From an uncultured candidate division Zixibacteria bacterium (GTDB lineage Bacteria > Zixibacteria > MSB-5A5 > RBG-16-43-9): 64,000 nucleotides of DNA. The position numbers and the translations under genes are program-made. The stretch lies in contig OY970208.1 of NCBI GenBank assembly GCA_963713865.1, positions 1,568,001 through 1,632,000 of the forward strand, in the 5' to 3' direction. The notes under the pieces are model-generated. The model was given only the letters and a program-made list of their open reading frames with translations, made no database searches and was not told the origin of the DNA. Below, in pieces: positions 1 through 59,658 of the stretch; position 1 is the first letter of the stretch, and every line of letters begins with the position of its first letter.

Positions 1-635
1 GCATCTTTATGGGTTACCAGGATGCTGTTACCTGTAACCTGGATCAGAATAGAATCCGGAGTAGATGGAGATGAACTACCTCCACTTATTGAACTCCTTT
101 CGGAAAGACATTCACTCTGCAGGTTAAGGACTTTACGGGTGCAGGGGGAGGGACCAGATTTGAAAAGATAGTTTATTAGCCAGACTACATCGGATAGGCT
201 GATTTTTCGGTCCAGGTTACAGTCACCAATCCAGGAGGGATTAGGTGGATTCCCGGATTTTAGAAGATAGCTAATTAAATAAATTATATCTGAAATTCCT
301 GAAAGACTGTCTCCATTCATATCTCCGCAGGTATAGCTCAGAAGTGGAAGCTCTTGGATGCCTTGTGATATTAAAGGAGTACAACTACAGAATTCATCCC
401 TTATACCCGAGATCTCAATATGTTTATTCTGATAGAGATAAAGGTCAAATAAATCCAGTTGGACCTGGGTTTCAGCATAACCTGAATCCGGGATTAACCT
501 GGCAAGCACCTGACATCCACAGGTAATTCCTTGTGGATGATAAACTAAAACACCTTTTTGAGTCTCCAGGGATAAGGCTGAAGAGGAGAGAAATAATAAG
601 ATAAATGAAACCAACAAAAAGTTTTTGCAAGACAT
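1..635 (-). CDS. Secreted protein with internal type I dockerin domain (5' part only, runs off window; absent from ORF track)
   Basis: Hand translation from ATG at 635 (GGAGG RBS at 641-645): MSCKNFLLVSFILLFLSSSALS signal peptide, then CGDMNGDSLSGISDIIYLISYLLKSG and GDCNLDRKISLSDVVWLINYLFKSGPSPC (nt ~141-330). Frame is open to the window edge. Confidence 0.85.
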   Translation of the reverse strand, partial: MSCKNFLLVSFILLFLSSSALSLETQKGVLVYHPQGITCGCQVLARLIPDSGYAETQVQLDLFDLYLYQNKHIEISGIRDEFCSCTPLISQGIQELPLLSYTCGDMNGDSLSGISDIIYLISYLLKSGNPPNPSWIGDCNLDRKISLSDVVWLINYLFKSGPSPCTRKVLNLQSECLSERSSISGGSSSPSTPDSILIQVTGNSILVTHKD

Positions 636-42977: not shown

Positions 42978-43170
42978 GTTGGCAAGAAAAGAAAGGATTT
43001 GCCTATAGATTATAGTTAAAGGGTATTTTGTGTTTTTGAAAGACAAATTTTGGTTCTAAAAGAGGAGTATCCCTTTAACTATGAGGCATCTTATCTTCCG
43101 AGCAGAAAACCCACTAAGGCGGATTAAAACTTCTCGGTTTTTTATTTGTTCAGATTTGAATCCATTAGAT

Positions 43171-46100
43171 ATGACTAAAAGGATAGTATTACCTCTTATC
43201 CTCCTCTGCCTGATTCTGCCGCTTTACGTTTACGCTTCAAATGAGTATAGCGATATCCAGATTTTAAGGTCAGACGAAAAGGGGATAGTTTTCAGATATA
43301 AGGTTCCTGAATTGACTTCGTCAAAATATAACAAGGGTGATACTCTTTTCGATATCTTGAGTATTGATAAATGTCCCCTTTCCAAGGATCCGGGATACCC
43401 TCAGGGTGCCAGCAAGAATTGTGGTGATCGGGATTCCACTGGGAAGTCAGATAGATGTTAGAATTTTAGAAGGGAATAGTCTGGAGAAAGGAAAGCTCAA
43501 TTTACCACGTTTTGAAGAAAGGCTTATAAACGAAGAAGGGCAGGAGTCAAGGAAATTACCAGAAAATATATATAATAAAGATATATTTTATCCTGAGAAG
43601 ATTGTGAGTTTTGACTATCCTACTTTTATGCGGAACCAGAGGATTTTGAGGCTGAAAATATTCCCGGTTCAATATAATCCTCTGAGAAAAGCGATAAAAT
43701 ACTATTCCGATATCACCATAGCAGTCGATTTTGCTGGAGGTGAAAAGAACGAGGGTAAAATAGAAAAAGATTTATTTGAAAACGTATTCAGAGAAACCAT
43801 TTTGAATTATGAGGTAGCGAAAATCTGGAGGAAAACCAAGGAGACAGGTTTAAAGAAAGTTTTACAGGTTAATCCTTTCAGTTACTCGGACACCTGGTAC
43901 AAAATTACTCTCAGGGATAATAGCATCTATAAATTAGATGGTAACTATCTGGCTAATGCCGGGATAAACCTGTCTTCTATTAATCCGCAGAAGATAAGAA
44001 TCTTTAATGGGGGAGGGAAAGTCCTTCCACTGTTGAATAAAGATCCTCGTCCAGAGTTGAAAGAGGTTGCTATATTTGTTTCAGATGGAGGGGATAATAA
44101 ATTCGACTCATCTGATTTTATCTTATTTTATGGCTGGTCTGTGAATAACTGGGAATATGATTCTACTTATGGGGGATACAAATATTATCTAAACCCTTAT
44201 ACCAGGGAAAATGTTTTCTGGCTTACTTTTACAGGAGACTTTCCGGATTCTGCTAAAAGGATGGAGATAAAAGATGGGAGTTTGCTTGATCCACATCCCT
44301 TTATCTTCACAAAATCTAAGGAAAGAATTCATATGGAGAGTGATGTAATGCTCCATGAAGTTGATGGGACCCCTTATGATTATTTTCAATGGTACTGGAA
44401 AGACGGCACTTCTTTTACCTTATACCAACCTTTATCCAATGTCCTTCCGGGAGATACTGCTGTTATTAAGGTCAGGCATACATCCAGTAGTATCTCTTCT
44501 ATTGTTCTTAACTCCACTCCTTCAATGATAGACTCAACCAAAAGAGACAAACTGTTTAATTATATCACCACAGCACGTTCTATAGACTTAGATAGCGGAT
44601 TAAACACCCTTCAAATCAGTTTTCCCTCTTGGATATATTTAGATTACTATGAAATCGAATACTGGAAAAAACTTATCTGTTCTGATAATCAGCTCTGGTT
44701 TGAAAATCAGGATACATCTGATATAATAGAGTATAGGATCACTGGTTTCAATGGAATCGCTCCCTATCTTTTTGAGATAGACGATAGATTTGAAGTAAAG
44801 AAATTTGAGAATCTAACCAGAAGTGTTGATACGATAAGATTTCAGGATCAGGTTACAGGAGGAGAGAAAAAGCAGTTTTACTTAGCGGATCAGTCTAAAT
44901 TCAAGACTCCGATTTCACTGACTTTAAACCAGATGGCTGATTTGAGAGATGTTTCAAATCAGGCTGACCTTTTGGTGATTACCCATTCTGATTTTTATGA
45001 CCAGCTGCAGGAATATAAAAGTCTTAGAGAAAACCTGAATCTTAGAGTCAAGTTAGTTGAAGTTCAAGACATATATGATGAGTTCTCCTGGGGGCTTTTC
45101 GATCCGGTAGCGATTAGAGATTTTATTAAATTCGCTTATGAAAACTGGGATGGTCAGGCACCAGCTTATGTTCTTTTAGTAGGGGATGGAACCTATGATT
45201 ATAAAGACCTTTTAGGCACCCATTCACCTAACTGGATCCCTCCTTTTGTAGCTAATCCATCGATCGATATATCGGTCTCGGATGATAACTACGCTTATTT
45301 CGGCAACTATGGCTATCTGGATGAGGATAGTAACGGGGTGGTGGATATGTTCATAGGGAGATGGCCTGTTAAAACTAATCAGGACGTGCAAATTATAATA
45401 AATAAAATCAAAGATTATGAAACTTCTCCAGAATTGAATACCTGGAGAAATTTGATAACCTTAGTGGCAGATGATGAGTTCGGACCACCGGGGATTAATG
45501 ACGAATGGGAACACACCGTTTATACAGAAAGTTTATCTAAAGAGCATATTCAAAAGAGTTTTAATCTGAACAAAATTTATCTAATGGAATATCCCAAAGA
45601 TGTCAACGGGAAAAAGCCTGAGGCAGAAGAGGCTATTGTAAATGCCTTTAATAACGGAACAGTAATTATCAATTATATGGGACACGGGAATCCCAATGTC
45701 TGGGCACATGAATATGTTTTTAAAAGGGAACAGGATATCCCACGGTTGAAGAATAAAAAAAGATTACCCTTAGTTTATGTAGCATCCTGTAGTATAGGAA
45801 ATTTCTATAATCCTTATGCTGAAGGGATGGGCGAGGAGTTTTTGAGAGCAGAGGAAAAAGGCGCAATCTCTGTAATCTCTGCTACCTGGCTGGTCTATGC
45901 CACGGAAAATGCCATGTTAAATTACAAAGTTTATGACCTGCTTTTAAGATCTAACTCACTATACTCCATATCCGAAGCATTATATATCGCCAAACTTTTA
46001 AGGGGCTATAATAGTAATGATCGCCAGTATATTATCATAGGAGACCCATTGACTTTTTTAGCTTCTCCTGAACTACAGGTCAGGTTGAAAGATTTGAATC

Positions 46101-47165
46101 CGGATACACTTTCAGCTCTGAGCCGGATCAATTTTAAAGGCGAAGTAACAGGCAGAGAAGGAAATATTAAAGCAGATTTTAATGGAACTGCTAATCTTTT
46201 AGCTTTTGATTCAGAAAGACAGAGGACTCATATGATCCGTAATCAGTCTGGTGAAATAGTGGATAGTGTGAAATATAATCTGCCGGGGAATGTGATGTTC
46301 AGAGGAATCGCCCTGGTTCAAAATGGAGAGTTTACAGGTAACTTTATAGTGCCTAAGGATATTGGTTACGGAGGTAAAAACGCAAAGATCAGTGCTTATG
46401 TGGTTAATTCTGATTCCAGCATTGATGGTGCAGGAGCTTTAGATTCCCTTATAGTAGCTGGGACTGATACCACGGTAAAAGACAATTTGGGTCCACAAAT
46501 ATCGATTTTATTTGAAGAGAATCTGAAATTTACAGATGGGGATACAGTTAAGCCAGAACCCTAACCTTATAGTTTATATAAATGATCCCCAGGGGATTAA
46601 TCTCACCGGTGAATTAGGACACGGGATCACGTTAATTATTGATGATGATTGGGAAAATATACAGGATTTGACTTCAAATTTCCAATACGATTTAAACAAT
46701 TACACACAGGGAAGTCTCAGACAAAAATTGAACTTAAAAGATGGGGAACATACGCTGAAAATAAAAGCCTGGGATAATGCCAATAACTCAACTCTTCAAA
46801 GTTTTCTGGTGAAGGTCTTGTCCGTAGATAAAGAATTATCAATTACCGAGGCGATGAACTATCCAAATCCTTTTTCCACAAAGAATCATGGTTCCACCCA
46901 ATTCACCTATGAGCTTTCAGTTCCTGCTGAAAAGGTGGAGGTAAAGATATTCACTATATCAGGCAGGTTAATCAAAATTATATCTGGAACTGGCTCCCCC
47001 GGGTTTAACTCCGGGGTAATCTGGGATGGAAGGGATGAAGATGAAGATAGGGTAGCTAATGGAGTGTATATTTATAAAATCATAGCAGAAACAAAATATA
47101 ATTCTGGAGGAAAGGAAACAACCAAAAAGGCTGAAGCCATAGGAAAAGCAGTGGTTATGAACTGA
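43171..47165 (+). CDS. porU: T9SS sortase PorU (C25 gingipain-family peptidase); +1 indels at ~43405 and ~46550; start could be 43081
   Basis: Signal peptide; C25 propeptide (PGYPQVPARIVVIGIP after repair); QDIYDEFSWG..AIRDF, LLVGDG, IGRWPV, NYMGHG (His), ASCS (Cys), FIVPKDI, KAWDNANN; C-terminal NYPNPF..WDGRD CTD. Confidence 0.88.
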
Positions 47166-47238: not shown

Positions 47239-49929
47239 ATGCGACGTTTTCTTCTTACTGGCTGGCTTTTCATAGTAGTGCTTTTTCTGGCAGTAGAATC
47301 TTTTGCGCAGGTAAGTCTATCCACTGTTCTTTTCTTAAGGATTGCGGCTGGCGCAAGAGCTGCAGGTATGGGTGAATCTTTCGTAGCTATAGCGGATGAT
47401 GCCACAGCCACTCACTGGAATCCGGCTGGTTTAGGGCTTTATCCTTTAGCCAGTACCTGGTTAGATTATAAGGGAAAAGCTGAGTATAGATTCAAATCCT
47501 TAGCCCTTTTAGGCAATGACAATCCAGAGAGCAATTATAAAAGACATGATCTCTGGGCTATCTCCGGGACTGAGCTTTATACCTGGACCGGTCAAGAATG
47601 GCAGAGTTTTCTTTCTTACCCGGTTTCTTCTGGAGAGACGGCTGAAAGTATTGTGAGGAAATATACTCAGGAAAAAGATGAAAATAGATTGAAGAAGATG
47701 TTAGCACAGGTGGGCTGGCAGAATTGCGGAATAAGCAAAGATTCACTGGAAAATCTAAAAGGAACAGTTTTATCTTTTATGCCACAGGACTCCTCCCGTC
47801 TGGCAGACTTAGAAAAAGGTTTGGGTGATCTTATTACTGCCCTGGAAAATTCTCTTTTAGAGCGTCAAGCTCTTAAAGAGTTTTTAAACCTTACTGGAAA
47901 TGCAGTTAAAGATAGTTCCATTACCGTCCAGGAAGAAGAGTTGATTTTAAATTCAGCCAGAAAGACCATCCTAAAGTCACTTCCAGTGGTTCTTGAGCTC
48001 CCTTATAGTATTATATTTTTAGATTCTCTCAACTCTCTATCTTCAGACGATAAAACTCTCTGGGTAGGTGCTAATAGTGGATTATATAAATTCGATGGTA
48101 AAGAGTGGAGAAGATTTACCTCAGTAGATGGTCTTCCTACAGATGGGGTTTATTCCCTGGCTTTCAGTCCTGCTGGCACAATCTGGATCGGAACAGACAG
48201 CGGAGTAGTCAAGTTCGATGGCAAAGTATTTAACAGAATCTATTTAGCCCCGGAGGTCAGGGATTACAGGGTAACACATATTGCAGCCAGAAGTGATAAA
48301 GAGGTCTGGGCCGCCACTTCCAAGGAGCTTATGAAGTTCGATGGAGCTCTTTTTATTCCCTATTATATCTTTAATGTTAAATCCTTTGAAGAACTAAGCC
48401 AGGGGGTAAAGAAGTTTTTAGACCGAGAGGACGAGGAGAATCTGAACTTGGTATTGAAAAGGGTCGAGGCTCTAAATTATGTAGTGAATGAGCAGGTTTA
48501 TCCAAACCAGCCTATAAAGATAGAGTATGGTTTAGCTTTAGAGGGAAAGGTAACCTGCCTGACTTTTGACCGGAAAGGGAGCCTGTTGGTCGGGACTGAA
48601 ACCGGTTTCCTAAAATTTGAAGATGGAAAGTGGAAAAGATATGGATACAGAAAATATGAAGTAAAAAATGAGAAAACAGTTGAAGAGGTAGCAGAAAAGT
48701 TTTTACCTTACAAAGATAAAGAGAGGGTCGAGGATATCGCTGGGAAGATTATGGAGTACAATCACCTGTCAACCAACGAGTTGAAACCAGGGCAAAAGCT
48801 TTATGTGTATGCCAATTCCTTGGGCAGTCAGATACTTTCTATAACTATGGCAGGTGAGGATAATCTTTTCGTGGGAACTGAATTCGGAACTTTGAGATTT
48901 GACGGAGAGAACTGGGGAAAATATTATCATGCAGACTTAGAGAGAGCAAAGGCCCATACTGTTATCTATAAAGATAAAGATATTTTCTTTGGCACAGATA
49001 ATAAAGCGGTGATCTATGCTCATGCCAAAAGGGAGCTTACTTTTATGCACGCTAACCTTTTGCCAGAGCTAGCTGAGGACGTTTATTATGAATACCTGTC
49101 CTATGTTCAGAACACTGAGAACTGGGGAACTCTTGGCGGCAACATTACTTTCATATCCTATGGTTCAATCCCCCGGACAGAATCCAGTCCAGAAGTGGTA
49201 GGTGAACTAAATCCATATGAAGCTGCGATAACTCTCTCCTACGGTACAAGTATGGGAAAGAGATTATCCTTAGGTCTGGGTGCAAAGTTTATCTATAGTC
49301 ATCTTTCTGACCAGGGAGCTGGTAAGGAGCGGGGAAGTGGCACTGGTTCCTCTTTTGCCATTGATGCGGGGATCATTAATAAGGAAGCTCCTTCATGGGC
49401 CAAGTATCTAATTTCTACTGGGTCTCTTGGTGCGCTTATTACGGATTTTAAAGTATTTAGCAAGTATCCGATGGTTTATCTTTCACCTCTATCCGCAATC
49501 CTTAGCAAAAGACTAACTTTAGGTGCGGCGGTTACCAATTTAGGACCGGATGTTTCCTATATTGACGTGGATCAAGCTGATCCTTTACCCCGGAACTTAG
49601 CTTTAGGGTTTGCCGCTAAGATTTTCGATACACCTTATAACAAACTCACTGCAGTTGGTGAGGTCAATAAGGAGTTAGTGGATGTGAGTGGAGATGTAAA
49701 GAAGATGATGGAGCAGGCAGTCAAAAATGTGGGATTAGAATATTGGTATGCTAATTATATAGCTCTGAGAGCAGGTTACATCTATGACAAGGTTGGAGAT
49801 ATAAAGACTTACACCTTCGGCTTTGGGTTGAGGATTAACCTTTTGAGAATAGATTTTGCCTATGTTCCAGCCAATCAGAATGTGGCTCTGGCTAATACTA
49901 CCAGGGTCTCAGGAACAATGAGATTTTAA
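47239..49929 (+). CDS. porV: PorV/PorQ-family (FadL-like) outer-membrane barrel with large LysM + beta-propeller insertion
   Basis: FLRIAAGARAAGMGE..ADDATATHWNPAGL; barrel resumes at ~aa 597 (LTFMHANLL, GAKFIYSHL, AIDAG, NLGP, DPLP, GLEYWY..LRAGY, IDFAY, terminal F); directly follows porU. Confidence 0.85.
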   Translation: MRRFLLTGWLFIVVLFLAVESFAQVSLSTVLFLRIAAGARAAGMGESFVAIADDATATHWNPAGLGLYPLASTWLDYKGKAEYRFKSLALLGNDNPESNYKRHDLWAISGTELYTWTGQEWQSFLSYPVSSGETAESIVRKYTQEKDENRLKKMLAQVGWQNCGISKDSLENLKGTVLSFMPQDSSRLADLEKGLGDLITALENSLLERQALKEFLNLTGNAVKDSSITVQEEELILNSARKTILKSLPVVLELPYSIIFLDSLNSLSSDDKTLWVGANSGLYKFDGKEWRRFTSVDGLPTDGVYSLAFSPAGTIWIGTDSGVVKFDGKVFNRIYLAPEVRDYRVTHIAARSDKEVWAATSKELMKFDGALFIPYYIFNVKSFEELSQGVKKFLDREDEENLNLVLKRVEALNYVVNEQVYPNQPIKIEYGLALEGKVTCLTFDRKGSLLVGTETGFLKFEDGKWKRYGYRKYEVKNEKTVEEVAEKFLPYKDKERVEDIAGKIMEYNHLSTNELKPGQKLYVYANSLGSQILSITMAGEDNLFVGTEFGTLRFDGENWGKYYHADLERAKAHTVIYKDKDIFFGTDNKAVIYAHAKRELTFMHANLLPELAEDVYYEYLSYVQNTENWGTLGGNITFISYGSIPRTESSPEVVGELNPYEAAITLSYGTSMGKRLSLGLGAKFIYSHLSDQGAGKERGSGTGSSFAIDAGIINKEAPSWAKYLISTGSLGALITDFKVFSKYPMVYLSPLSAILSKRLTLGAAVTNLGPDVSYIDVDQADPLPRNLALGFAAKIFDTPYNKLTAVGEVNKELVDVSGDVKKMMEQAVKNVGLEYWYANYIALRAGYIYDKVGDIKTYTFGFGLRINLLRIDFAYVPANQNVALANTTRVSGTMRF

Positions 49930-49945
49930 GTCAACAAGGGATTAA

Positions 49946-52900
49946 ATGGATAAAAATCATAGCTTGAATAAACGAACGAATACTGTTATGTTGAGTCCGC
50001 CACAGGCGGACGAAGCATCTAAATCCCAGGCAGAAGATAGATTCTTCTCCTGCCTTTGGCGGGATCAGAATGACAGGTCTGTTTTTATTTTATTTTTTCT
50101 TTTTCTCTTTTCCCTGATAGCTTATCCCTCTTTTGCTGACGAGAGCAGGATTTTTGAAATCAAAGGGTTAAAGAAAACTGAAAAACAATTGCAGGAAGCA
50201 AAACCCGAATTTATAAGCCGGATCTCCCAGAAAAACCTGTTGGGATTGAAAAGAAAAGGGAAATTTGCACTGCCAGTTTTAGGAGAAGAATATTATGCAC
50301 AAGCAGAGACATTAAAGGTTCTGGGAATCAGGGTTGAATTCGAAGAAGAAATTCCCGATGATCCCAAAACTACGGGAGATGGACTGTTCGACCGCAGAAC
50401 CTACCAACAGCATTATGCAGATGAAGGGTATATTATCGATCCTCCGCCTCACTATAGAAAGTATTTTTTAGCTCACCTGAGAGCTCTTAACAATTACTGG
50501 AATACGGTCTCTAATGGAAAATTAGTTTTAAAATATGAAGTCTATCCATTAGATGAAACCTTAACTTATCAACTGCCTCATACTATCTCTTATTATGGAG
50601 ATCCTGCATCCCCTTATTATCCTTTTGAAGGGTTAAGGCAGTTCTTTCATGATTCTTTTCATTTAGCGGATTCGGCCTCCTCCCCGAAAATAGATTTCTC
50701 AGAGTATGATTGTTTTATAATCTTTCACGCTGGCTCAGATAAACAGAGCGATCTGGGGAGTTTCTCACCTACTTATACCCCGAATGACCTTTTTACCGGT
50801 TTTATCGTTACCGGAGATACAGTTCTGGTAGATGGTGGCAGTTTTGGGATCACCGAGGGAGTACTAATGCCCGAAACCAGGTCCCAGGATAGCCGTATCG
50901 GGGCTTTGAATGCGGTTTTTGCCCATGAGTTCGGGCATCAATTGGGACTGCCGGATTTCTACAATACTAATACCTTTACCACCCAGATAGGGGATTTCTC
51001 CCTAATGGATAATAATGGGTTGGATGTGGGGATCGATCTGGACAGCTGTAGAAGTCCAGTTAACGGTCTTTTACCGGTTTATCCGGATGCCTGGGGAAAA
51101 GCTTATTTAGGTTATATACAACCAGTTGAGATTTTGAACCAGAATGATGTTCAGCTTTATGCATCTGAGTTGTTAAGTGCAGGAGACACACAAACAGTTA
51201 AGGTGCCTATCAATTCAGAAGAATATTTTCTTATTGAGAATCGGCAGACTGATATTGATAATTCAGTTACTAATCTTTTAGCAGACAGTACTACTGGTGT
51301 AGTTTTAGGTCCGGTAAACAACTCAAAACAGCCTAATCGCGAATACGATTTTCTTCTGCCCGGCTCAGGGATTTTGATCTGGCACATTGACGAAGGGGTG
51401 GCTTATTCTGATTTTGATAACGATGGGATAAATAACTTTGATGAGAATGAATTACAAAATAACAAGGACCGGAGATTTATAACCCTGGAAGAGGCGGATG
51501 GAATCATCGATTTCGGCGGGAATTATTATACCGGTTATGGATCGCAGGAAGATATGTATTATCTGGGGAACAACTCCAATTTCACTCCTTACACTTTCCC
51601 CTCCAGCCGGTCTAATAATCGATCTGAAACCCATATATATGTAACCAATATCGGGAGACAAGATACAGTGATGAGCTTTAATGTAAAAAACGATATTTTC
51701 CTTTCAGGCTGGCCTCAGAGGATTATCCCTGGTTCTGATAACAGCTCTTTAGTCTATGGGGATTTAGACGGGGATGGAAAAGAGGAGATAGTCACCGCTT
51801 CAGGAAGACTGATTTATGCTTGGAGAAAGGACGGCTCTAAATTTATTCCAAATTCGGATTCAATCGGAATTTTGGGACTGGATGAGGAATATCATTATTA
51901 TCCTCTGGCTGTTTTTGCAGAAGCGGATACCACCGTTGTTGGCACGCCTTCTTTAGGAGATTTAGATGGAGATGGGATATTAGAGGTAGTCGTGGGAACT
52001 ATGAGTGGTGAGCTTTGTATCTGGCATGCTGAGGACTCAGATTCAAATGGAAGAGCGGATCATTTTATGAATTATAAAGTAGGCAATAAAATCTCAATGA
52101 CAGCTGTCATTGCAGATTTTAATTCTGACGATCCTGGTCCTGAGGTATTTGTCGGAGCGGAGGATGGTAAATGGGTAATGCTGGCTTTTGGTGAATATGT
52201 CATAGCTATCACTGAGGGGAATTATAATGAAAAAATTATCGGGCTGGCTACTACAGATATTGATAGTATAAGTTTTGTTTTAACTGAGAATGATCAATCA
52301 GGTCATTTAAGAAGAACAGATGATTCAGCGGGCTGGATAAAAGATATTCCCTCCAAAAATAATTTCCCTCCAGTGGTTGGGGATATAAACCGGGATAATA
52401 AATTAGAGGTGATAGTTCTTTCTGGAGATGGAAAAATCTATGCCTGGGATATTGATGGTAACCTGTTATCAGGTTTTCCGGTTATAGTAGGGGATATAAG
52501 ATCAGGTCCGGCCTTAGGGGATATTGATGCAGATGGGTATTTAGAGATTATATTTGGCGGTGATAATAAAGTTTATGCTTATAATTATAATGGAGCAATG
52601 GTTACTAATTTCCCGTTTATCATAAATAAAGTGGAGCCAGCCGGGGCAATTTCTTCAACGCCTGTTTTGGGAGATTTGAACGGAGATGGAAATGTTGAAA
52701 TAATTTTCGGACTAAAAGATGGTCAGGTTTTTGCCTTACAGGGTGATGGTTCCAGGTTTACCAGTTTTCCTTTAGCTCTGAGCGGAGAGATTACTTCTTC
52801 CGGTATAGTTTTGAATGATTCGATAGAGATTTACAATGAGGTCATAATTTATATGAGAAGAGACCTTTTCTTTAAAACTGGAGATGGCCTGGTCTATGGT

Positions 52901-53305
52901 TTCTCCCTGGATTTTCATAATACTGATGGAAATGAAAAGACTCCCTGGTTGATGTATGGCTATAATGCAGGACATACTAATTGTCTGCCAACGACTTTTC
53001 TTCCAGAGATACCGGTATATGCTGATCTTATGCCTGAGAAATCGGTCTATAATTATCCTAATCCAGCTAAGGATGAGACTACTATTCGATATTTTCTGAG
53101 CAGAGATGCTTCAGTTGATATAAAGATTTATGACCTTTCAGGAGATCTGGTTGCAGAAACAACCCAGATGGGCAGGAGTAATACTGAGAATGAATATAAA
53201 TGGGATTGCTCTAAATATGCCAGCGGAGTCTATCTCTGCCGGGTAGAAGTAAAATCTTCTGAAGGGAAGAAAGTAGCTTTCTGTAAGATAGCTCTGATAA
53301 AATAG
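49946..53305 (+). CDS. Secreted M6 (immune inhibitor A-like) metalloprotease with FG-GAP repeats and T9SS-type CTD
   Basis: IFHAG, HEFGHQLGLPD, EYFLIENRQ, GILIWHID; GDLDGDG repeats; YNYPNP..ASGVYLCRVE. Confidence 0.9.
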   Translation: MDKNHSLNKRTNTVMLSPPQADEASKSQAEDRFFSCLWRDQNDRSVFILFFLFLFSLIAYPSFADESRIFEIKGLKKTEKQLQEAKPEFISRISQKNLLGLKRKGKFALPVLGEEYYAQAETLKVLGIRVEFEEEIPDDPKTTGDGLFDRRTYQQHYADEGYIIDPPPHYRKYFLAHLRALNNYWNTVSNGKLVLKYEVYPLDETLTYQLPHTISYYGDPASPYYPFEGLRQFFHDSFHLADSASSPKIDFSEYDCFIIFHAGSDKQSDLGSFSPTYTPNDLFTGFIVTGDTVLVDGGSFGITEGVLMPETRSQDSRIGALNAVFAHEFGHQLGLPDFYNTNTFTTQIGDFSLMDNNGLDVGIDLDSCRSPVNGLLPVYPDAWGKAYLGYIQPVEILNQNDVQLYASELLSAGDTQTVKVPINSEEYFLIENRQTDIDNSVTNLLADSTTGVVLGPVNNSKQPNREYDFLLPGSGILIWHIDEGVAYSDFDNDGINNFDENELQNNKDRRFITLEEADGIIDFGGNYYTGYGSQEDMYYLGNNSNFTPYTFPSSRSNNRSETHIYVTNIGRQDTVMSFNVKNDIFLSGWPQRIIPGSDNSSLVYGDLDGDGKEEIVTASGRLIYAWRKDGSKFIPNSDSIGILGLDEEYHYYPLAVFAEADTTVVGTPSLGDLDGDGILEVVVGTMSGELCIWHAEDSDSNGRADHFMNYKVGNKISMTAVIADFNSDDPGPEVFVGAEDGKWVMLAFGEYVIAITEGNYNEKIIGLATTDIDSISFVLTENDQSGHLRRTDDSAGWIKDIPSKNNFPPVVGDINRDNKLEVIVLSGDGKIYAWDIDGNLLSGFPVIVGDIRSGPALGDIDADGYLEIIFGGDNKVYAYNYNGAMVTNFPFIINKVEPAGAISSTPVLGDLNGDGNVEIIFGLKDGQVFALQGDGSRFTSFPLALSGEITSSGIVLNDSIEIYNEVIIYMRRDLFFKTGDGLVYGFSLDFHNTDGNEKTPWLMYGYNAGHTNCLPTTFLPEIPVYADLMPEKSVYNYPNPAKDETTIRYFLSRDASVDIKIYDLSGDLVAETTQMGRSNTENEYKWDCSKYASGVYLCRVEVKSSEGKKVAFCKIALIK
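49983..50076. repeat. TGTCATTCTGAG-family palindrome inside the 5' end of the protease CDS
   Basis: Left arm nearly identical to the reverse complement of the right arm of the 26648 copy; ends cagaatgacag. Confidence 0.8.
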
Positions 53306-53396: not shown

Positions 53397-54275
53397 GTGA
53401 ATTACAAAAGATTTAAAATCGCAGGATTGGCTGTAATGATTTTGATTTTATTCTTTTGCTGGTCAAGAGCTGAGTCTTTAGATACTAACGAGGAAAATAC
53501 TCCTTCGATTAATGGCTATTTCGATCAGATAGATTATCAGAGCTCAAAACAGCTCTATAGTTTAACTCAATCTGATTCAGCAAGTAAGCCAAAGCCAAAC
53601 ATAGACGTTTATCATTTTAAAGGGAAATCCACCAAGAGAGGGTTTCTCTACTCTTTGATTTTACCCGGTGCGGGTGAATTTTATGCGGGGTCCAAAATCA
53701 AAGCTGCATTATTTGTTGGTTTAGAAACAGCTTTCTGGACTGGATATTTTACAAATCATAAAAAAGGGAAAGATAAAGAGGATCAGTACATAGATTTTGC
53801 AAATACTCACTGGAGTGAAGAGGCTTATAAAGACTCTTTGTTAAATCGTTATTTAGTAAATATTGATACGATAAAATCCGGCACCAGAATTGGTAATCCC
53901 TACGATAATACAGATTCGATTGATATCATCGAAACACTGCCTTCATCCAAGACCCAGCAGTATTATGAGATGATCGGAAAATATGACCAGTTCAGGTTCG
54001 GCTGGGACGATTATAATGGAGTCGCTTTCGAGACTGCTCACCGGATTTTTTATCTGGACTTGCGACATGATTCCAATGATCTGTTGAATAAAGCTAACCG
54101 TTATGTGATGATTTCATTGGCTAATCATTTATTGTCTGCTTTTGATGCGGCTCTGGCGGTTCGTTCCCATAATCGAAAAGGTGAGAAGTTTTCCACGATC
54201 GACGTAAAGCTGAGGCTGGCAGAATATAACAAGAATGAGATTATACCCAAACTTACGGTTAGTACAAAATTTTAA
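53397..54275 (+). CDS. Exported DUF5683-like protein (paralogue 1)
   Basis: Signal peptide; KSTKRGFLYSLILPGAGEFY; ends LTVSTKF. Confidence 0.65.
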   Translation: MNYKRFKIAGLAVMILILFFCWSRAESLDTNEENTPSINGYFDQIDYQSSKQLYSLTQSDSASKPKPNIDVYHFKGKSTKRGFLYSLILPGAGEFYAGSKIKAALFVGLETAFWTGYFTNHKKGKDKEDQYIDFANTHWSEEAYKDSLLNRYLVNIDTIKSGTRIGNPYDNTDSIDIIETLPSSKTQQYYEMIGKYDQFRFGWDDYNGVAFETAHRIFYLDLRHDSNDLLNKANRYVMISLANHLLSAFDAALAVRSHNRKGEKFSTIDVKLRLAEYNKNEIIPKLTVSTKF

Positions 54276-54290
54276 ACTGAATAAGAGAAG

Positions 54291-55187
54291 ATGAATAAAA
54301 GGTTTTTAAATTATATATGGGTAATAGTCATTTCTCTCCTCTTTGATCTGGTTTTTATAAATCTGGCTTTTGGTGAGGGAAAAAGGTTAGTCAGAACAGA
54401 ACACTATTCTGTCCCTGCACGGTTGAATCAGGGATTGTCGTCAATACCTTTTTCCAGGGAAGTCACTAACCACCTAAAGCTTGTACAGTCCGGGGAAGAA
54501 GGGCAATTCCTATATGGACAGAACTTGCAAAACGAGAAAGAAAAAGGCTCACTCTGGGAGGATGAGTTTCAGAAGACCAGCGGAAGAAAGTCTACCAAGA
54601 AAGCTATGCTCCTTTCGTTACTCTTACCAGGAGCGGGGGAGCTATATGCAGGTAACAAAACCCACTCAAGGATATTTTTAGGGATAGAAGGGTCTATCTG
54701 GGGCAGCTTTTTTGCTTTCAGGACTTATGGTTCCTGGAAGAAAAGAGATTATAAAGGTTTTGCGGCTTTGCACGCTGGGGTGAGTTTAAGTGGAAAAAAT
54801 GACGATTTTTTCGAGGATATAACCTATTATAGTAACCGGGATGAATATAATCAATTTGCCAGATTATATAATGGGGATCAAGCGATAATCTATCCGGAGA
54901 ATGATTTCTGGAACTGGGAATGGGATTCTCAGGATTCCAAGGGGCACTATCGGGAATTACGTAATCAGAGTAAATCAGCTTATAGAAGAGCCTTATATAT
55001 GGTAGGCTTAGCAGCTTTAAATCGAGTAGTGAGTGTCCTGGATGCAGTTCGGAGTGTGAAGAAATTCAATCGTATGCTCGGCTCAGAATTTTCATCTGCC
55101 GATCAAACCGGTTTAAAATTAAGCCTGGATGCTAATTTATTTGGCAAAAATCCTCATTTCAGCTTCAGTTTAAGTAAAAGCTTTTAG
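54291..55187 (+). CDS. Exported DUF5683-like protein (paralogue 2)
   Basis: Signal peptide; KSTKKAMLLSLLLPGAGELY; ends FSLSKSF. Confidence 0.65.
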   Translation: MNKRFLNYIWVIVISLLFDLVFINLAFGEGKRLVRTEHYSVPARLNQGLSSIPFSREVTNHLKLVQSGEEGQFLYGQNLQNEKEKGSLWEDEFQKTSGRKSTKKAMLLSLLLPGAGELYAGNKTHSRIFLGIEGSIWGSFFAFRTYGSWKKRDYKGFAALHAGVSLSGKNDDFFEDITYYSNRDEYNQFARLYNGDQAIIYPENDFWNWEWDSQDSKGHYRELRNQSKSAYRRALYMVGLAALNRVVSVLDAVRSVKKFNRMLGSEFSSADQTGLKLSLDANLFGKNPHFSFSLSKSF

Positions 55188-55220: not shown

Positions 55221-56192
55221 ATGAAAATCGATATTGTGAATAACTCCTTTCAAAAGTTAATGTTTTTCTGCCTTTTTATTTCGATGGGTGGTTGTGCTTC
55301 GGTCCCTTCCTGGCAGGTAGATAAAGATACCACATATTCATCTCCTAAAGGGGTTATACCCGTAAAGGTCATAGGAGAAGGCGAGTTAGGCTCGACTGAG
55401 CTCAATCAGCCTCAAGGAGTGGTTATCGATCCAGCCGGGAATCTTTATATAGTTGATTCTGGAAACAATCGAATAGTAAAGTGCAGTCAGGAGGGAGATT
55501 TTCTTAAAGAGATCGGTGGGTTTGGATGGGATAATGGGGAATTCAATCTTCCCAGCTACATCACTATGGATAATGGTCTCTCTCTTTATGTTACTGACAC
55601 CCAGAATAAAAGGGTCCAGAGGTTAGATAACTATTTGAATTTTATTCAGTCGATAAGTTCAAATAATCAGGAGAAGCCTTTTGAAAATAGTCAGCTAAAA
55701 GGGGTAGCTTTATCCAGAAGCGGTGAGCTTTTTTTAGCAGATGCGGAAAACGATTGCATAATTAAACTGGATAATCAATTTGCTTTTCAACAAAAATTTG
55801 GTGGTTTTGAATCTGGTTATGGAGCCCTTAACGATCCACAAGGGATATCAGTTGATACTCGAGGGAATCTCTATGTGGCTGATTCAGGTAACGATCGGAT
55901 TGCCGTATATGATTCTTTTGGGAATTTTCTCAAAGAGCTTGGCAGAGGGCATCTAAACAGACCATATGGTGTAGAGGTAAGTAGAAATGGGGTAGTATAC
56001 GTGGCTAATACTTTTGGGGATAATCTGGTAGCCCTGGATGAAAACGGTAAAATCCTTTTTAAGTTCGGGAAGAGTGGGAGAGGAGAGGGGGAGTTTTCCA
56101 AACCAAAAGATTTAAAAATCTATGAAGGTAAAAAAATCTGTATCGTAGATAGTGGGAATAACCGGATTCAAATATTAGAATTAGTTGAGTAA
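55221..56192 (+). CDS. NHL-repeat beta-propeller probable lipoprotein
   Basis: Lipobox-like SMGGC; repeated P.G..D..GNLY.ADSGN.RI. Confidence 0.88.
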   Translation: MKIDIVNNSFQKLMFFCLFISMGGCASVPSWQVDKDTTYSSPKGVIPVKVIGEGELGSTELNQPQGVVIDPAGNLYIVDSGNNRIVKCSQEGDFLKEIGGFGWDNGEFNLPSYITMDNGLSLYVTDTQNKRVQRLDNYLNFIQSISSNNQEKPFENSQLKGVALSRSGELFLADAENDCIIKLDNQFAFQQKFGGFESGYGALNDPQGISVDTRGNLYVADSGNDRIAVYDSFGNFLKELGRGHLNRPYGVEVSRNGVVYVANTFGDNLVALDENGKILFKFGKSGRGEGEFSKPKDLKIYEGKKICIVDSGNNRIQILELVE

Positions 56193-56201
56193 AAAAGGCA
56201 G

Positions 56202-59200
56202 ATGATACTCTTTTTGGACAGATATTCTGGAATAGCTCTTATCGGTATATTTATCTGTCTGACTACTTCTGATCTTCAGGGACAGCTTTTAGTAAAGAAA
56301 ACTGAAATCAAGTTAAAAGGGGAGGAGACTGCTGGTCCATTTTTTCTCTCAAAAAATTATATCCTTATACATACAGAAAAAGTTTTGAAGGATAGTATTA
56401 TTCTGGAAAGAGAAAAAGATTATATTATCGATTATAATAAAGGGCTCCTCTGGCTTTTTATGCCATTAGAAAAAGACGACACTCTAACAGTAAGTATTGA
56501 GGAGTTTTCATCCGGGATTAAGAAAAGATATTTTCACCGGGAACTTTCCTTTGACCAGGAATCTTTTAATTCAAATGGAGGTCTGATCTACCTCGGGCGG
56601 ACTTCTACATATCCTCTGGATCTTTCTGGTGAAAATTTATCCAGCAGAAAATCTGGTTATAATTTTAAAAAGTCGATTTCGCAAATACCACGGGATAAGG
56701 CTTTTTCCTCCAGTCTTCAGATCTCGGGAAGCAAGAGTTTCTCCCTGGGTTTAGGTAACTCTGATGATTTTTCATTATCTCAGGGGTTAAATCTTACAGT
56801 TTCTGGAAATTTGACCAAGGAGGTTAAGGTCTTAGCCTTGATCTCAGATCAAGGTAAAGGAGGAACCCCGGCTGGTACTACTAAAAGGCTGGAAGAATTA
56901 GATAAGATCTTGATGCAGGTTACCTCTCCCAATTTTAATGGGTTCTTAGGTGATCAGTATCTTACCCTGGAGGGGAATCTTGCTGGCAGATATGAGAAGA
57001 AATTGCAGGGAGCTTCATCTGAGGTAAAATTCAAAGAAAATAGTTTATCTGTTTCCTATGCTTCCTCCAGAGGGAAATATTTTCATAACATCTTCTCAGG
57101 AATGGAAGGGAAGCAAGGTCCCTATTATCTTAAAGGAGAAAATGGAGAAAGGGGAATTCAGATTCTTCCAGGAACAGAGAAGGTTTATCTGGATGGCGAT
57201 CTTCTGGAAACAGGTTCGGATAACGATTATACCATGGATTACCTTAGAGGTGCGATTTATTTTTCATCTACCCGGCTGGTAACAGGTGATTCAAGAATCA
57301 GGGTAGAATTCGAATATTCTGACCAGAGCTATGAGAAAAGTTTCTATAACAGCAAAGCAGAGTTTAATCTGTTTCAAGGTAAGCTGAAGCTTAAAGGTCT
57401 TTTTATAGATGAAAGGGATGATAAGGATAATCCATTATCATTGGCTTTTTCTTCGGAGGACAAAAATATCTTAAAGAATTCAGGCGAGGATAAAAGCAAA
57501 GCTTTTAAAGATGGAGCTCAGTTCGCAGGAGAAGGGAAAGGAGATTATATCCTTTTAGCTGATTCTTCAGGGAATCCATATTATCAATATGCTGGAAAAG
57601 ATAGCGGAACTTATCTGGTTTCCTTTAGCTGGGTAGGTGCTTCAAAGGGGAGTTATGTCTATAAGGGTGGAGGGATTTACAGTTATGTATATCCGGGCAA
57701 TGGTGATTATCTGCCGGTGATATTTCTGCCTTTACCTTCAACTCATTCCCTTCTGGATTTGAGTCTGGATATTAACCTATTTCCGGGGTTTTCATCCGAG
57801 ATAGGCTGGGGCTTGAGCAGAAAAGACCTCAATTCATTTTCGGATTCGGGAGATGAGGATAATTCAGGAAATGCCTTTCTTTTTAGAACAGGACTGGATA
57901 AACAAAACCTATCCGTTTTCGGTCATAACCTCTCCAAACTGAAGTTTGAGGGATTGTATAGAAATCTTGGCGAAAACTACCAACCTCTGGGAAGACTGGA
58001 TGAAATAGAAAAGGAGAGGGTCTGGGGTTTTTCGGATGATTCCACAAAAGGTTCGGAAAAAGTAATAAGATTTAAAAGCGATTTTTCACCAGTTGAAAAT
58101 CTAAGCCTAAACACAGATCTGGGGGTTCTTAAAAAAGGTGATTATTTTGAATCCAGGCGCAGAAGGTTTGAGATTGCCCTTCGCCCTTTCAAAAACTTAG
58201 AAACTAAAGGTTCAACTGAAAATATAAAAAGTAATCAAAAAGATGAACTAATTGACCGGGCTGGAAGTTGGCAGAGAAGGAATTTTTATCTGGAACACAG
58301 ATGGAAAAAGCTCAATACTCAACTTGGCTGGCAGAAAGAGATGCAAACGTTTACTCCACAGGATTCAGCTTTTATAAATAAAAAATATGATGAGCTGAAA
58401 GGGAAGATGAGTTTAGAATCGAGCAGATTATGGGGTGTATCCAGCCAGTTAGTTTATCGAGACGAAAAAAGAAAAGATATTTCCTGGAGAAAAGAGTCGA
58501 ATTCCTATACCTGGCAAAATCGATTAGCTTTAAGAGATTTTAAAGAGGTATTTTCTTCTAATCTTGAACATATATACCGGGAAAAAAATCTTAAATCCGG
58601 AGATAAGACCAGGGGTAATCTGGGGGTTTTGAAATTAGATTATTATCCGATTAATCAATCTATGATTTTGAATCTTTATTATTCAGTCAACCAGTTGGGC
58701 TCGGAGAAAAGAGTAGATAATTACCTGGAGGTAGGGGAAGATAGAGGGGAATACCGGCTTGAGAATGGGGAATATGTTCCTGATCCAGATGGGAATTTTA
58801 TATTACAAAGGGAGATTTTAGATGAATATCTACCCGGGGTAAAATTAGATAAAAGCTGGAGATTGGTTTTTAAACCGGGTAAACTTTTTACCAGAGGTAA
58901 ATTTTTAAAGGAATTTTATACTGATACTTTTATCAGGTCCTCTAATCAGATCTCTGGCAGAGTAAACTGGAGTAGTTTTCTTTTAAACCCTTTCAGCGGA
59001 GGTTCTGCTAAAGAAACAATCCTTAAGGATTGTTTCTGTAGTCAGGACCTTTACCTTTTCCCTTCTGCCCCTTTGAATCTCAGGTTAAGATGGACTCAGG
59101 ATAAAAAAGAAAATCTACTTCTGCTCTCCGGAAAAGACAGAGATTATAAAACCGCTCTGTCCGCTCTTTTTCGTTACAGAGTATCTTTCAAAAATCTTTT

Positions 59201-59657
59201 AGAATCGGAAATCTCTCAGGAGAGAAGAGAAAGGGAGAAATATTATTCTGATTATCTTATAATCGAGGGGAGAAGCCTGAAACTTAACTTTACGCGAAGA
59301 GAAAAGAACTCCCTGGAGATAACTTTAGCCACTAAATTGAAGAGGGAAGTTGAAAAAGAGCTTGGGCTTCAAGTTTACCTATTTGAATTTTCACCCAAGC
59401 TTTCCCTTTCCTTTCTTGGACAGGGAAAAGTTCGCTCTGAGTTTGGTTGGTCAAAGGTTAGCTTTTCACCTGCAGATGAAATATTACCCTGGGAAATGGC
59501 AGAAGGGAAAAAAGAGGGTAATAACTATTCCTGGATTTTAGGTTTTGATTTTAAACTAAATCAAGGTTTTTCAGCTAATTTTAATTATTCGGGGTTAAAA
59601 GAACCGAAAAGAGAGATGAAACACAATGGTAAATTTGAGGTCAAAGCTTATTTTTAA
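56202..59657 (+). CDS. Large (1151 aa) predicted outer-membrane beta-barrel with SprA-like E.V..DG..L....DY..DY..G motifs
   Basis: Two DYIIDYNKG / DYTMDYLRG motifs, long run of amphipathic strands, terminal EVKAYF. Confidence 0.6.
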   Translation: MILFLDRYSGIALIGIFICLTTSDLQGQLLVKKTEIKLKGEETAGPFFLSKNYILIHTEKVLKDSIILEREKDYIIDYNKGLLWLFMPLEKDDTLTVSIEEFSSGIKKRYFHRELSFDQESFNSNGGLIYLGRTSTYPLDLSGENLSSRKSGYNFKKSISQIPRDKAFSSSLQISGSKSFSLGLGNSDDFSLSQGLNLTVSGNLTKEVKVLALISDQGKGGTPAGTTKRLEELDKILMQVTSPNFNGFLGDQYLTLEGNLAGRYEKKLQGASSEVKFKENSLSVSYASSRGKYFHNIFSGMEGKQGPYYLKGENGERGIQILPGTEKVYLDGDLLETGSDNDYTMDYLRGAIYFSSTRLVTGDSRIRVEFEYSDQSYEKSFYNSKAEFNLFQGKLKLKGLFIDERDDKDNPLSLAFSSEDKNILKNSGEDKSKAFKDGAQFAGEGKGDYILLADSSGNPYYQYAGKDSGTYLVSFSWVGASKGSYVYKGGGIYSYVYPGNGDYLPVIFLPLPSTHSLLDLSLDINLFPGFSSEIGWGLSRKDLNSFSDSGDEDNSGNAFLFRTGLDKQNLSVFGHNLSKLKFEGLYRNLGENYQPLGRLDEIEKERVWGFSDDSTKGSEKVIRFKSDFSPVENLSLNTDLGVLKKGDYFESRRRRFEIALRPFKNLETKGSTENIKSNQKDELIDRAGSWQRRNFYLEHRWKKLNTQLGWQKEMQTFTPQDSAFINKKYDELKGKMSLESSRLWGVSSQLVYRDEKRKDISWRKESNSYTWQNRLALRDFKEVFSSNLEHIYREKNLKSGDKTRGNLGVLKLDYYPINQSMILNLYYSVNQLGSEKRVDNYLEVGEDRGEYRLENGEYVPDPDGNFILQREILDEYLPGVKLDKSWRLVFKPGKLFTRGKFLKEFYTDTFIRSSNQISGRVNWSSFLLNPFSGGSAKETILKDCFCSQDLYLFPSAPLNLRLRWTQDKKENLLLLSGKDRDYKTALSALFRYRVSFKNLLESEISQERREREKYYSDYLIIEGRSLKLNFTRREKNSLEITLATKLKREVEKELGLQVYLFEFSPKLSLSFLGQGKVRSEFGWSKVSFSPADEILPWEMAEGKKEGNNYSWILGFDFKLNQGFSANFNYSGLKEPKREMKHNGKFEVKAYF

Positions 59658-59658
59658 A

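Follow-up and report, generated by a model that had tools for sequence, protein, structure and literature searches.

What would PorV, an outer-membrane component of a type IX secretion system (T9SS), do with some 530 additional residues between its plug and its barrel? The question is raised by a porV gene of an uncultured bacterium of the candidate division Zixibacteria (assembly GCA_963713865.1, contig OY970208.1), whose genome is represented by one contig of 2.72 Mb that is 94% complete. The window analyzed here is the whole stretch of 64,000 nucleotides from position 1,568,001 to position 1,632,000 of the forward strand, and the coordinates below count from its first letter. In this window, one open frame on the + strand (47239..49929), along which the GC content was uniform, encodes a protein of 896 amino acids (aa) plus stop, hereafter giant PorV. 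An earlier note on this DNA had read the gene as a PorV barrel interrupted by propeller blades and three LysM-like domains, and had suggested that the protein is either tethered to the cell wall or has absorbed a PorZ-like propeller. According to bioRxiv 10.1101/2020.05.13.094771 and PMC9143113, PorV of Bacteroidota is a mobile shuttle, and in the former source rings of PorK/N were proposed to confine it.

The gene is the Zixibacterial porV; PorV is the FadL-type barrel of the outer membrane with which the PorU sortase is paired in type IX secretion. The protein scored 73.5 bits with the Pfam PorV model (PF19572; cut-off 27) in three stretches, and 220.5 bits with the NCBIfam PorV/PorQ family model (NF033709, PorV_fam; cut-off 90), which places it in the PorV/PorQ family. 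With the PorV equivalog model (NF033710), which we take to be built from Bacteroidota proteins, it reached 164.7 bits, under the 250-bit cut-off, in a match split by the insert; this was the top score of the genome, and the seven small paralogues followed at 39.7-103.9 bits. It is encoded with PorU, since porU directly precedes porV both in the window and in all 12 sampled genomes of the phylum. The first 23 aa (47239..47307) form a signal peptide, judged by eye to be cleaved after SFA, that aligned with the signal peptide of the solved Flavobacterium johnsoniae PorV (6h3i_F, 402 aa). The hatch, or plug, follows (aa 24-66; 47308..47436) and ends in WNPAGLG at aa 60-66, and the barrel occupies aa 598-896 (49030..49926), with Phe as its last residue. 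A Sec signal peptide and a C-terminal Phe would fit an ordinary outer-membrane barrel.

In the AlphaFold2 (AF2) model of the whole protein, DSSP assigned 14 long strands to aa 598-895, and the chain thus has a 14-strand FadL-type barrel with an N-terminal hatch carrying the NPA motif, modeled with moderate to low confidence in these two parts. The best Foldseek matches of the model were the PorV chains 8gl6_F (1.6e-16) and 6h3i_F (5.9e-13), followed by periplasmic Reg_prop sensors of Bacteroides hybrid two-component systems and the seven-bladed Ycf48. VIA-align superposed model residues 24..896 on 6h3i_F 21..395 with a Z of 23.5 over 292 of 345 residues, and Z values to the solved PorV chains were 23.5-24.4.

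The site of the insertion was located with an alignment of 43 family members and homologues of giant PorV (alignment A1), which is the basis of the profile, the AF2 model and the residue counts. The A1 profile matched 6h3i_F (E 5.8e-40) in three pieces, namely 1-63 to PorV 1-63, 594-776 to PorV 68-258, and 762-858 to PorV 295-395. Approximately 530 residues therefore stand in place of about 4 PorV residues (63 to 68), in the linker that leads from the hatch to strand 1 just after NPA. Giant PorV shares the WNPA hatch, the 14-strand FadL-type barrel and the porU neighbor with Bacteroidota PorV (LptO; F. johnsoniae 6H3I and 8GL6, chain F), whereas the solved 402-aa protein has some 4 residues between hatch and strand 1 where the Zixibacterial one has 530. 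The inserted module (aa 67-597; 47437..49029, + strand), delimited with the AF2 model, VIA-align and the phylum-wide search, has a mass of 60 kDa. The earlier note had the hatch ending at NPAGLG (aa 66) and the barrel resuming at about aa 597, and the alignment with 6h3i_F bore this out, with resumption at aa 598; its span of 47437-49026 corresponds exactly to aa 67-596, and the four blade motifs and the LysM stretch that it quoted are all present in the translation. The Pfam scans for LysM, Reg_prop and PorV that it proposed were positive as well, all three exceeding their gathering cut-offs.

The larger share of the module is a propeller. Giant PorV scored 39.3 bits with Pfam Reg_prop (PF07494; cut-off 20.4), and all 43 members of A1 matched this family. 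Model residues 71..597 superposed on the first propeller of BT3049 (residues 21-359) with a Z of 24.8 over 278 residues, and the whole seven-bladed chain 2z2n (293 aa) was laid over model residues 71..596 with a Z of 22.9. As modeled, aa 71-597 are thus a single seven-bladed propeller, of the Reg_prop kind by both score and fold, made up of about 270 blade residues and about 260 extra residues. In the model the two ends of the propeller meet, as a domain held within a short linker would need. The AF2 model, computed on A1, had a mean predicted local distance difference test score (pLDDT) of 76.8 and a predicted template modeling score of 0.71, and the pLDDT was about 90 over aa 70-600, that is, over the module. 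By sequence, the closest relatives of the blades found with the A1 profile were 4a2l (9e-40) and 3v9f (3e-33), both propellers of Bacteroides hybrid two-component sensors. These sensors (BT4663, BT3049, BT4673) likewise have blades of the type LWVGT..GL..FDG and a seven-bladed fold, and they are periplasmic; they differ in that each chain has two propellers, free of LysM insertions, and is linked to a kinase, whereas giant PorV has a single propeller inside a barrel protein.

The extra residues are mainly accounted for by three LysM-type units, each of which begins directly after the outermost strand of a blade in the DSSP assignment, unit 1 after blade 1, unit 2 after blade 4 and unit 3 after blade 5. 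Blades interleaved with LysM-like units had been described in the earlier note, rightly so; the arrangement can now be specified as one propeller with units at these three places. Unit 1 starts with its first strand and both helices at aa 124-166 (47608..47736), as aligned with the other two units by hhalign, and encloses a 79-aa helical bundle (aa 167-245; 47737..47973) with helices at 167-179, 188-203, 209-224 and 230-243. The segment aa 246-258 (47974..48012), with the motif LPVVLELPY and a strand at 251-255, is probably the closing strand of unit 1; Pro255 in it is present in 40 of the 43 family members. Unit 2 covers aa 373-430 (48355..48528), delimited by hhalign, both AF2 models and a tandem-LysM match, and unit 3 covers aa 469-526 (48643..48816), delimited by Pfam LysM and VIA-align to 2mkx; all these features are on the + strand. 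The strand-helix-helix-strand pattern of the LysM fold was assigned by DSSP in all three units, so that LysM folds, whose absence would have told against the earlier interpretation, are predicted in the AF2 models.

Pfam LysM (PF01476) matched unit 3 (aa 473-523) at 23.1 bits (cut-off 20.9), and at 23.3 bits in the genome-wide search; in both the Pfam scan and the genome-wide LysM search this was the only LysM stretch of the gene. Among the 43 family members, 34 had a LysM match at E ≤ 0.01. When slices of A1 were compared by hhalign, unit 3 matched unit 2 with a probability of 99.1% (54 columns) and unit 1 with 96.2% (40 columns), and unit 2 matched unit 1 with 97.4%, each E-value covering one pairwise comparison. 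The three units, as the earlier note proposed, are homologous repeats of one another by sequence profile. A second alignment of 21 sequences over aa 370-530 (A2; unit 2, blade 5 and unit 3) was modeled separately with a pLDDT of 89.2. Compared with 48,161 chains by VIA-align, this model gave 14 chains with a Z of at least 5 (5.2-6.5), all carriers of LysM or LysM-like domains, most of them by entry title, and some (phage and injection-system baseplates; Kbp) by a class that we presume for them. SleL led with a Z of 6.5, followed by the AtlA LysM domain 2mkx, which superposed on unit 3 with a Z of 6.4 and a root-mean-square deviation of 1.9 Å over 51 of 51 residues, and by the tandem LysM protein 4uz2_A (Z 6.4; 94 residues; model 6..158), which spans units 2 and 3. 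By sequence, the A2 profile matched the LysM-bearing LytE (8i2e_B, 3.4e-4) and 4uz2_A (0.011) at unit 3. The Asn of helix 2, a LysM hallmark, is present in 38, 43 and 43 of the 43 members in units 1, 2 and 3, respectively (Asn413 in unit 2 and Asn508 in unit 3), and units 1 and 2 retain the canonical G-D/E-x-L motif in most lineages. On the modeled structures, the units are LysM by fold and ancestry.

This architecture is phylum-wide. Looked for in other genomes, as the earlier note had proposed, the insert was found in 281 of the 285 species genomes of the phylum and in 128 of its 130 genera; it was present in all 198 genomes that are at least 90% complete, and the four genomes in which it was missed are 52-81% complete. 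The open frames carrying it have about 860-1070 codons. A word-indexed homologue search gave 294 proteins of 492-1568 aa at E ≤ 0.001; among the 120 homologues listed, PorV was matched in 120, Reg_prop in 118 and Pfam LysM in about half, and every named homologue among those listed was a Zixibacteria PorV/PorQ family protein. Across A1, segment lengths were almost fixed at identities from 35% to 95%, with variation at the helical bundle, the first-blade segment and the turn between barrel strands 6 and 7. The bundle is missing in 5 of the 43 members (P0017, P0019, P0022, P0104 and P0108), and four forms of 1050 aa (P0115, P0117, P0119 and P0120) have about 190 extra aa in the first-blade segment. 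Two bundle-less members, forms of 729-788 aa, also lack most of LysM unit 1. The mean majority fraction by segment was highest in the hatch (0.92) and 0.73-0.75 in the barrel. Within the module, the propeller segments adjoining the barrel (aa 67-123 and 527-597) had 0.64 and 0.69, versus 0.40-0.60 in mid-module, where the LysM units had 0.50-0.60 and the helical bundle, the lowest of the module, 0.40.

Outside the phylum, the architecture was not found, the named homologues with full coverage all being Zixibacteria (absence elsewhere is unproven). No free-standing propeller-LysM donor was found among shorter proteins (30-491 aa), where the 53 matches were fragments of the giant PorV family and ordinary Reg_prop propellers of about 360 aa, and a search of the ESM Atlas with the insert gave no usable match. 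Against 1.84 billion representative sequences, the insert had 53,710 matches at E ≤ 0.001, mostly to repeated Reg_prop blades; among the best 150 of these, only about 13 spanned the whole insert, in one or two stretches, and the named members of their clusters were Zixibacteria. Among the best 80 named genome loci (L053-L132), 43 were titled Zixibacteria, 28 'uncultured Ignavibacteria/-ales/-aceae', 7 'uncultured bacterium', 1 Terriglobales and 1 FCB group. The 28 Ignavibacteria-titled loci stem from third-party assemblies. We considered whether Ignavibacteria is a second phylum carrying giant PorV, and rejected this: in a FastTree tree of the 80 proteins and that of the window, the Ignavibacteria label required 21 changes, shuffled labels required 23.3 on average, and a count this low arose in 79 of 500 shuffles, so that the label is no more clustered than a shuffled one; it also divides near-identical pairs of giant PorV. 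The Ignavibacteria titles look like labeling noise of the submitters, and titles look unreliable for this phylum. In a full-text literature search, to which supplementary tables did not belong, there was no description of a Zixibacteria PorV or of a Zixibacteria T9SS, and at the level of listings and abstracts no PorV-LysM fusion was described.

In the barrel itself, an extra stretch of 44 aa (aa 715-758; 49381..49512, + strand) fills the turn between strands 6 and 7, modeled with low confidence (pLDDT below 50). Most family members have 4-6 aa in this turn; the close relatives of the window protein have 44 aa, one relative has 23 aa, and three others have 70 aa. A W-x-K start is common to the extra segments, which are hydrophobic and poorly modeled; by strand count the turn would be on the periplasmic side, adjoining the module. 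The 44-aa segment does not come from a repeat element, as its DNA is unique in the genome.

On which side of the membrane does the module lie? In a FadL-type barrel, the chain passes from the hatch to strand 1 at the periplasmic rim, and the number of strands is even with a periplasmic C-terminus. Because strand 1 starts at the periplasmic rim (14 strands, periplasmic C-terminus), the inserted module should be in the periplasm, directly under the barrel, if giant PorV follows this analogy. Since LysM domains bind glycans containing N-acetylglucosamine (peptidoglycan, chitin), the module is most simply interpreted as a non-covalent peptidoglycan tether. Giant PorV would be exported by its Sec signal peptide, after which the barrel would insert in the outer membrane and the module would stay in the periplasm beneath it. 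The LysM units could then bind the glycan strands of peptidoglycan non-covalently, with the propeller serving both as a rigid spacer and as a platform for docking. This would hold PorV at fixed sites of the sacculus, along with its sortase PorU and, as long as it is docked, the translocon SprA, so that fixed stations would replace shuttling. Judged from sequence and predicted structure, we consider it an evenly balanced proposition that giant PorV is tied to the cell wall through its LysM units and has lost the mobility of a free shuttle.

Outer-membrane barrels with non-covalent peptidoglycan-binding domains in the periplasm are familiar from OmpA-type proteins. Giant PorV resembles these in general design, and its genome encodes such proteins; in OmpA, however, OmpA_C is C-terminal and follows an 8-strand barrel, whereas giant PorV has its LysM-type units on a propeller that precedes the first strand of a 14-strand secretion barrel. 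A closer parallel is the PorP-PorE pair of Porphyromonas gingivalis, in which a 14-strand FadL-family barrel lies over a periplasmic propeller with a domain of the wall-binding type. In PMC7192894 and PMC9143113, PorE is described as a periplasmic lipoprotein with a propeller and OmpA_C that binds a peptidoglycan fragment; it lies beneath PorP, a FadL-type barrel, and a role in anchoring T9SS parts to the wall and in setting non-mobile cargo apart from mobile cargo is proposed for it. PMC9143113 further proposes that non-mobile cargo is held by PorP-like barrels that have a PorE-like partner. PorP and PorE are two proteins, PorE being a lipoprotein with TPR, a five-bladed propeller, CRD and OmpA_C, whereas the Zixibacterial PorV is one chain with a PorV-like barrel, a seven-bladed Reg_prop propeller and LysM-type units in place of OmpA_C. 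Giant PorV is not itself a PorE, having no OmpA, TPR or CRD match in Pfam and, by eye, no lipobox Cys. By analogy, PorP-PorE would be its closest functional counterpart, and a wall-bound giant PorV would in effect be a PorP-PorE arrangement fused into one chain.

Several observations weigh against a wall tether. The AF2 pLDDT did not reach 50 in the hatch and lay mostly at 55-80 over the barrel, and the periplasmic location of the module follows from the topology of the chain, not from the geometry of the model. Units 1 and 2 of the window protein fall short of Pfam LysM when taken alone. In Foldseek, the model of aa 370-530 had no match at E ≤ 0.001; the best rows, all at E > 0.001, were tandem LysM proteins, first 4uz2_B (0.012) and then MltD and ectodomains of the CEBiP and CERK1 types. 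The LysM matches of VIA-align are modest, none reaching a Z of 8; Z values of this modest size are usual for domains of 50 residues. Several of these matches are units of LysM fold from phage and injection-system baseplates, where we presume that their role is structural. The canonical Gly at position 6 is found in just 30, 27 and 22 of the 43 members in units 1, 2 and 3, the link between helix 1 and helix 2 is longer than in the Pfam model in all three units, and in the lineage of the window protein the Gly-Asp of units 2 and 3 has become Phe-Glu and Glu-Lys. Judging from these residues, ligand binding may be weakened in this lineage.

The same decay of Gly-Asp in units 2 and 3 speaks for a rival reading, in which the module would mainly be a docking platform for proteins that contacts the periplasmic face of SprA, other periplasmic machinery or cargo, with the LysM units as decoration; in a variant of this reading, the module might gate the translocon in the manner of the Plug protein. 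Propellers are common protein-binding scaffolds, the propeller of PorE is thought to bind PorP (PMC9143113), and the baseplate pieces among the structural matches of the LysM units point in the same direction, as does the fact that the segments nearest to the barrel are the best conserved of the module. The conserved neighboring genes, coding for a probable NHL lipoprotein and two DUF5683-like proteins, could supply the partners. On the other hand, all three LysM-type units are kept phylum-wide, 38-43 of 43 members retain the hallmark Asn, and units 1 and 2 have the canonical G-D/E-x-L in most lineages; we regard the docking platform as possible, though not probable. The kinship of the blades with periplasmic sugar-sensing domains of Bacteroides (4a2l, 9e-40; 3v9f, 3e-33; Z 24.8) raises a different idea, that the module binds a soluble glycan, such as a product of wall turnover, and signals to the hatch to tune secretion or cargo attachment; it is joined directly to the hatch, the most conserved segment of the protein. 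Hybrid two-component sensors, however, combine two propellers in each chain and pass their signal to a kinase by way of a membrane helix, whereas giant PorV has one propeller and, in Pfam, no signaling domain, which makes a sensor improbable.

The module could also be imagined on the cell surface, doing a PorZ-like job in which the anchor glycolipid is presented to PorU. PorZ (5M11) has Reg_prop-like propellers and is part of the PorU-PorV attachment complex, and the insert has a weak, Reg_prop-level similarity to it. PorZ, which acts on the cell surface, has two propellers and carries a C-terminal sorting domain (CTD), whereas the insert is one propeller, matched the PorZ model (NF052228) with 19.9 bits against a cut-off of 260, and matched solved PorZ 5m11 with an E-value of 0.0041, compared with 9e-40 for 4a2l; the insertion is at the periplasmic end of the barrel, and the Pfam scan found no Por_Secre_tail (CTD) match in giant PorV. 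Moreover, the genome has a separate, full-length PorZ-like gene (742 aa; 225.6 bits versus a cut-off of 260; model positions 1-757). A surface module is thus very improbable. The idea in the earlier note that PorV had absorbed a PorZ-like propeller finds no support in the same data (19.9 bits, E 0.0041, a PorZ-like gene of its own, no CTD, and a surface protein set against a presumably periplasmic module); of that interpretation, what stands is a PorV with LysM-type units in an insert at the junction of hatch and strand 1, for which a cell-wall tether is a reasonable reading. Finally, two frame changes interrupt the neighboring porU as assembled here, and one may ask whether the fusion, too, is an artefact of assembly or gene calling. 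Giant porV is read without interruption (about 860-1070 aa) in 281 of 285 genomes, which come from many independent assemblies; this leaves next to no room for an artefact, and misassembly of giant porV is refuted by the homologues that share the fusion (294 proteins, 281 of 285 genomes and 80 named loci).

The surroundings of the gene are those of a T9SS locus, with all features assigned to families on the + strand. The T9SS sortase gene porU (peptidase C25; 43081..47165) is spread over three frames (43081-43461, 43364-46564 and 46536-47165), of which the middle and last pieces scored 583.3 and 145.8 bits with the NCBIfam T9SS_sortase model, with Pfam Peptidase_C25 at 3e-87. In a genome of the same genus, porU is a single open frame of 1359 codons, with a DNA identity of only 86.5% and many insertions and deletions. 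The frame shifts are near 43404, where a run of G has an extra G, and near 46560. The broken porU may be either an assembly error or a decaying sortase gene. Downstream of porV lies a gene (49946..53305) for an M6-like metalloprotease that has FG-GAP repeats and, at its C-terminus, a T9SS sorting domain, as identified with Pfam and NCBIfam. Its best match was the NCBI family 'T9SS-dependent M6-like inactivated metalloprotease' (452.5 bits; cut-off 600), and despite the word 'inactivated' in the family name the protein retains an intact HEFGH motif. Two DUF5683-like genes follow (53397-54275 and 54291-55187), with weak Pfam DUF5683 matches under the cut-off; both proteins have a signal peptide, the motif LLPGAGE.YAG and a C-terminal Phe. 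The next gene (55221..56192) encodes an NHL-repeat propeller (Pfam NHL, 5.8e-34), probably a lipoprotein, with a GGC motif, seen by eye, after a hydrophobic N-terminus.

All 12 genomes sampled from the phylum have these genes in the same order (porU, giant porV, the M6-like protease gene, then the DUF5683-like pair), and an NHL match came after the DUF5683 pair in 11 of the 12 loci. At the remaining one (L042), no NHL match over 50 bits was listed in the fetched stretch, which stops about 780 bases past the DUF5683 pair. Farther on in the window, 56202-61200 includes a 1151-aa protein without a Pfam or NCBIfam family and with a faint match to the SprA model (E 5.6e-4). It overlaps the start of a 524-aa POTRA-Omp85 protein, and the two resemble a TamB/TamA-like pair in reversed order.

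Elsewhere in the genome there are seven ordinary PorV/PorQ-family barrels of 304-349 aa (L001-L007), among them one PorQ-like (191.6 bits) and one PorV2-like (167.9 bits). Two of the small barrels, L004 and L006, are adjacent, and the genome has further FadL-like barrels of 419-501 aa. PorV proper binds the CTD of cargo, which it carries from SprA to the attachment complex; SprA is present in the genome as a frame of 1987 codons, and CTD-like matches number about 45. OmpA_C is carried by 6 frames (177-531 aa), the two longest of which were scanned and are both porin-like, and no PorE-like architecture was seen among the 6 frames, the two longest having been scanned. No GldK, GldL, GldM or GldN was found in the genome with TIGR03525, TIGR03513, TIGR03517, PF12081 and TIGR03523, the control genomes being ones without a T9SS.

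A bolder picture, which we put forward as doubtful, is a Zixibacteria T9SS without the PorK/N ring and the PorL/M motor, in which a wall-anchored PorV would assume the task proposed for the ring and keep translocon, carrier and sortase together. Secretion and attachment would then take place at fixed stations defined by the sacculus, with no shuttle step, and the propeller could sit under SprA as a periplasmic gate. PorV is the textbook mobile carrier, and current models, which come from two Bacteroidota species, require travel from translocon to sortase. A phylum-wide PorV with a 60-kDa, presumably periplasmic module that bears units of the wall-binding type, a compact and well-predicted domain, suggests that shuttling is perhaps not a universal step, and that the T9SS may repeatedly require attachment to the sacculus, for which Porphyromonas employs PorE in trans.

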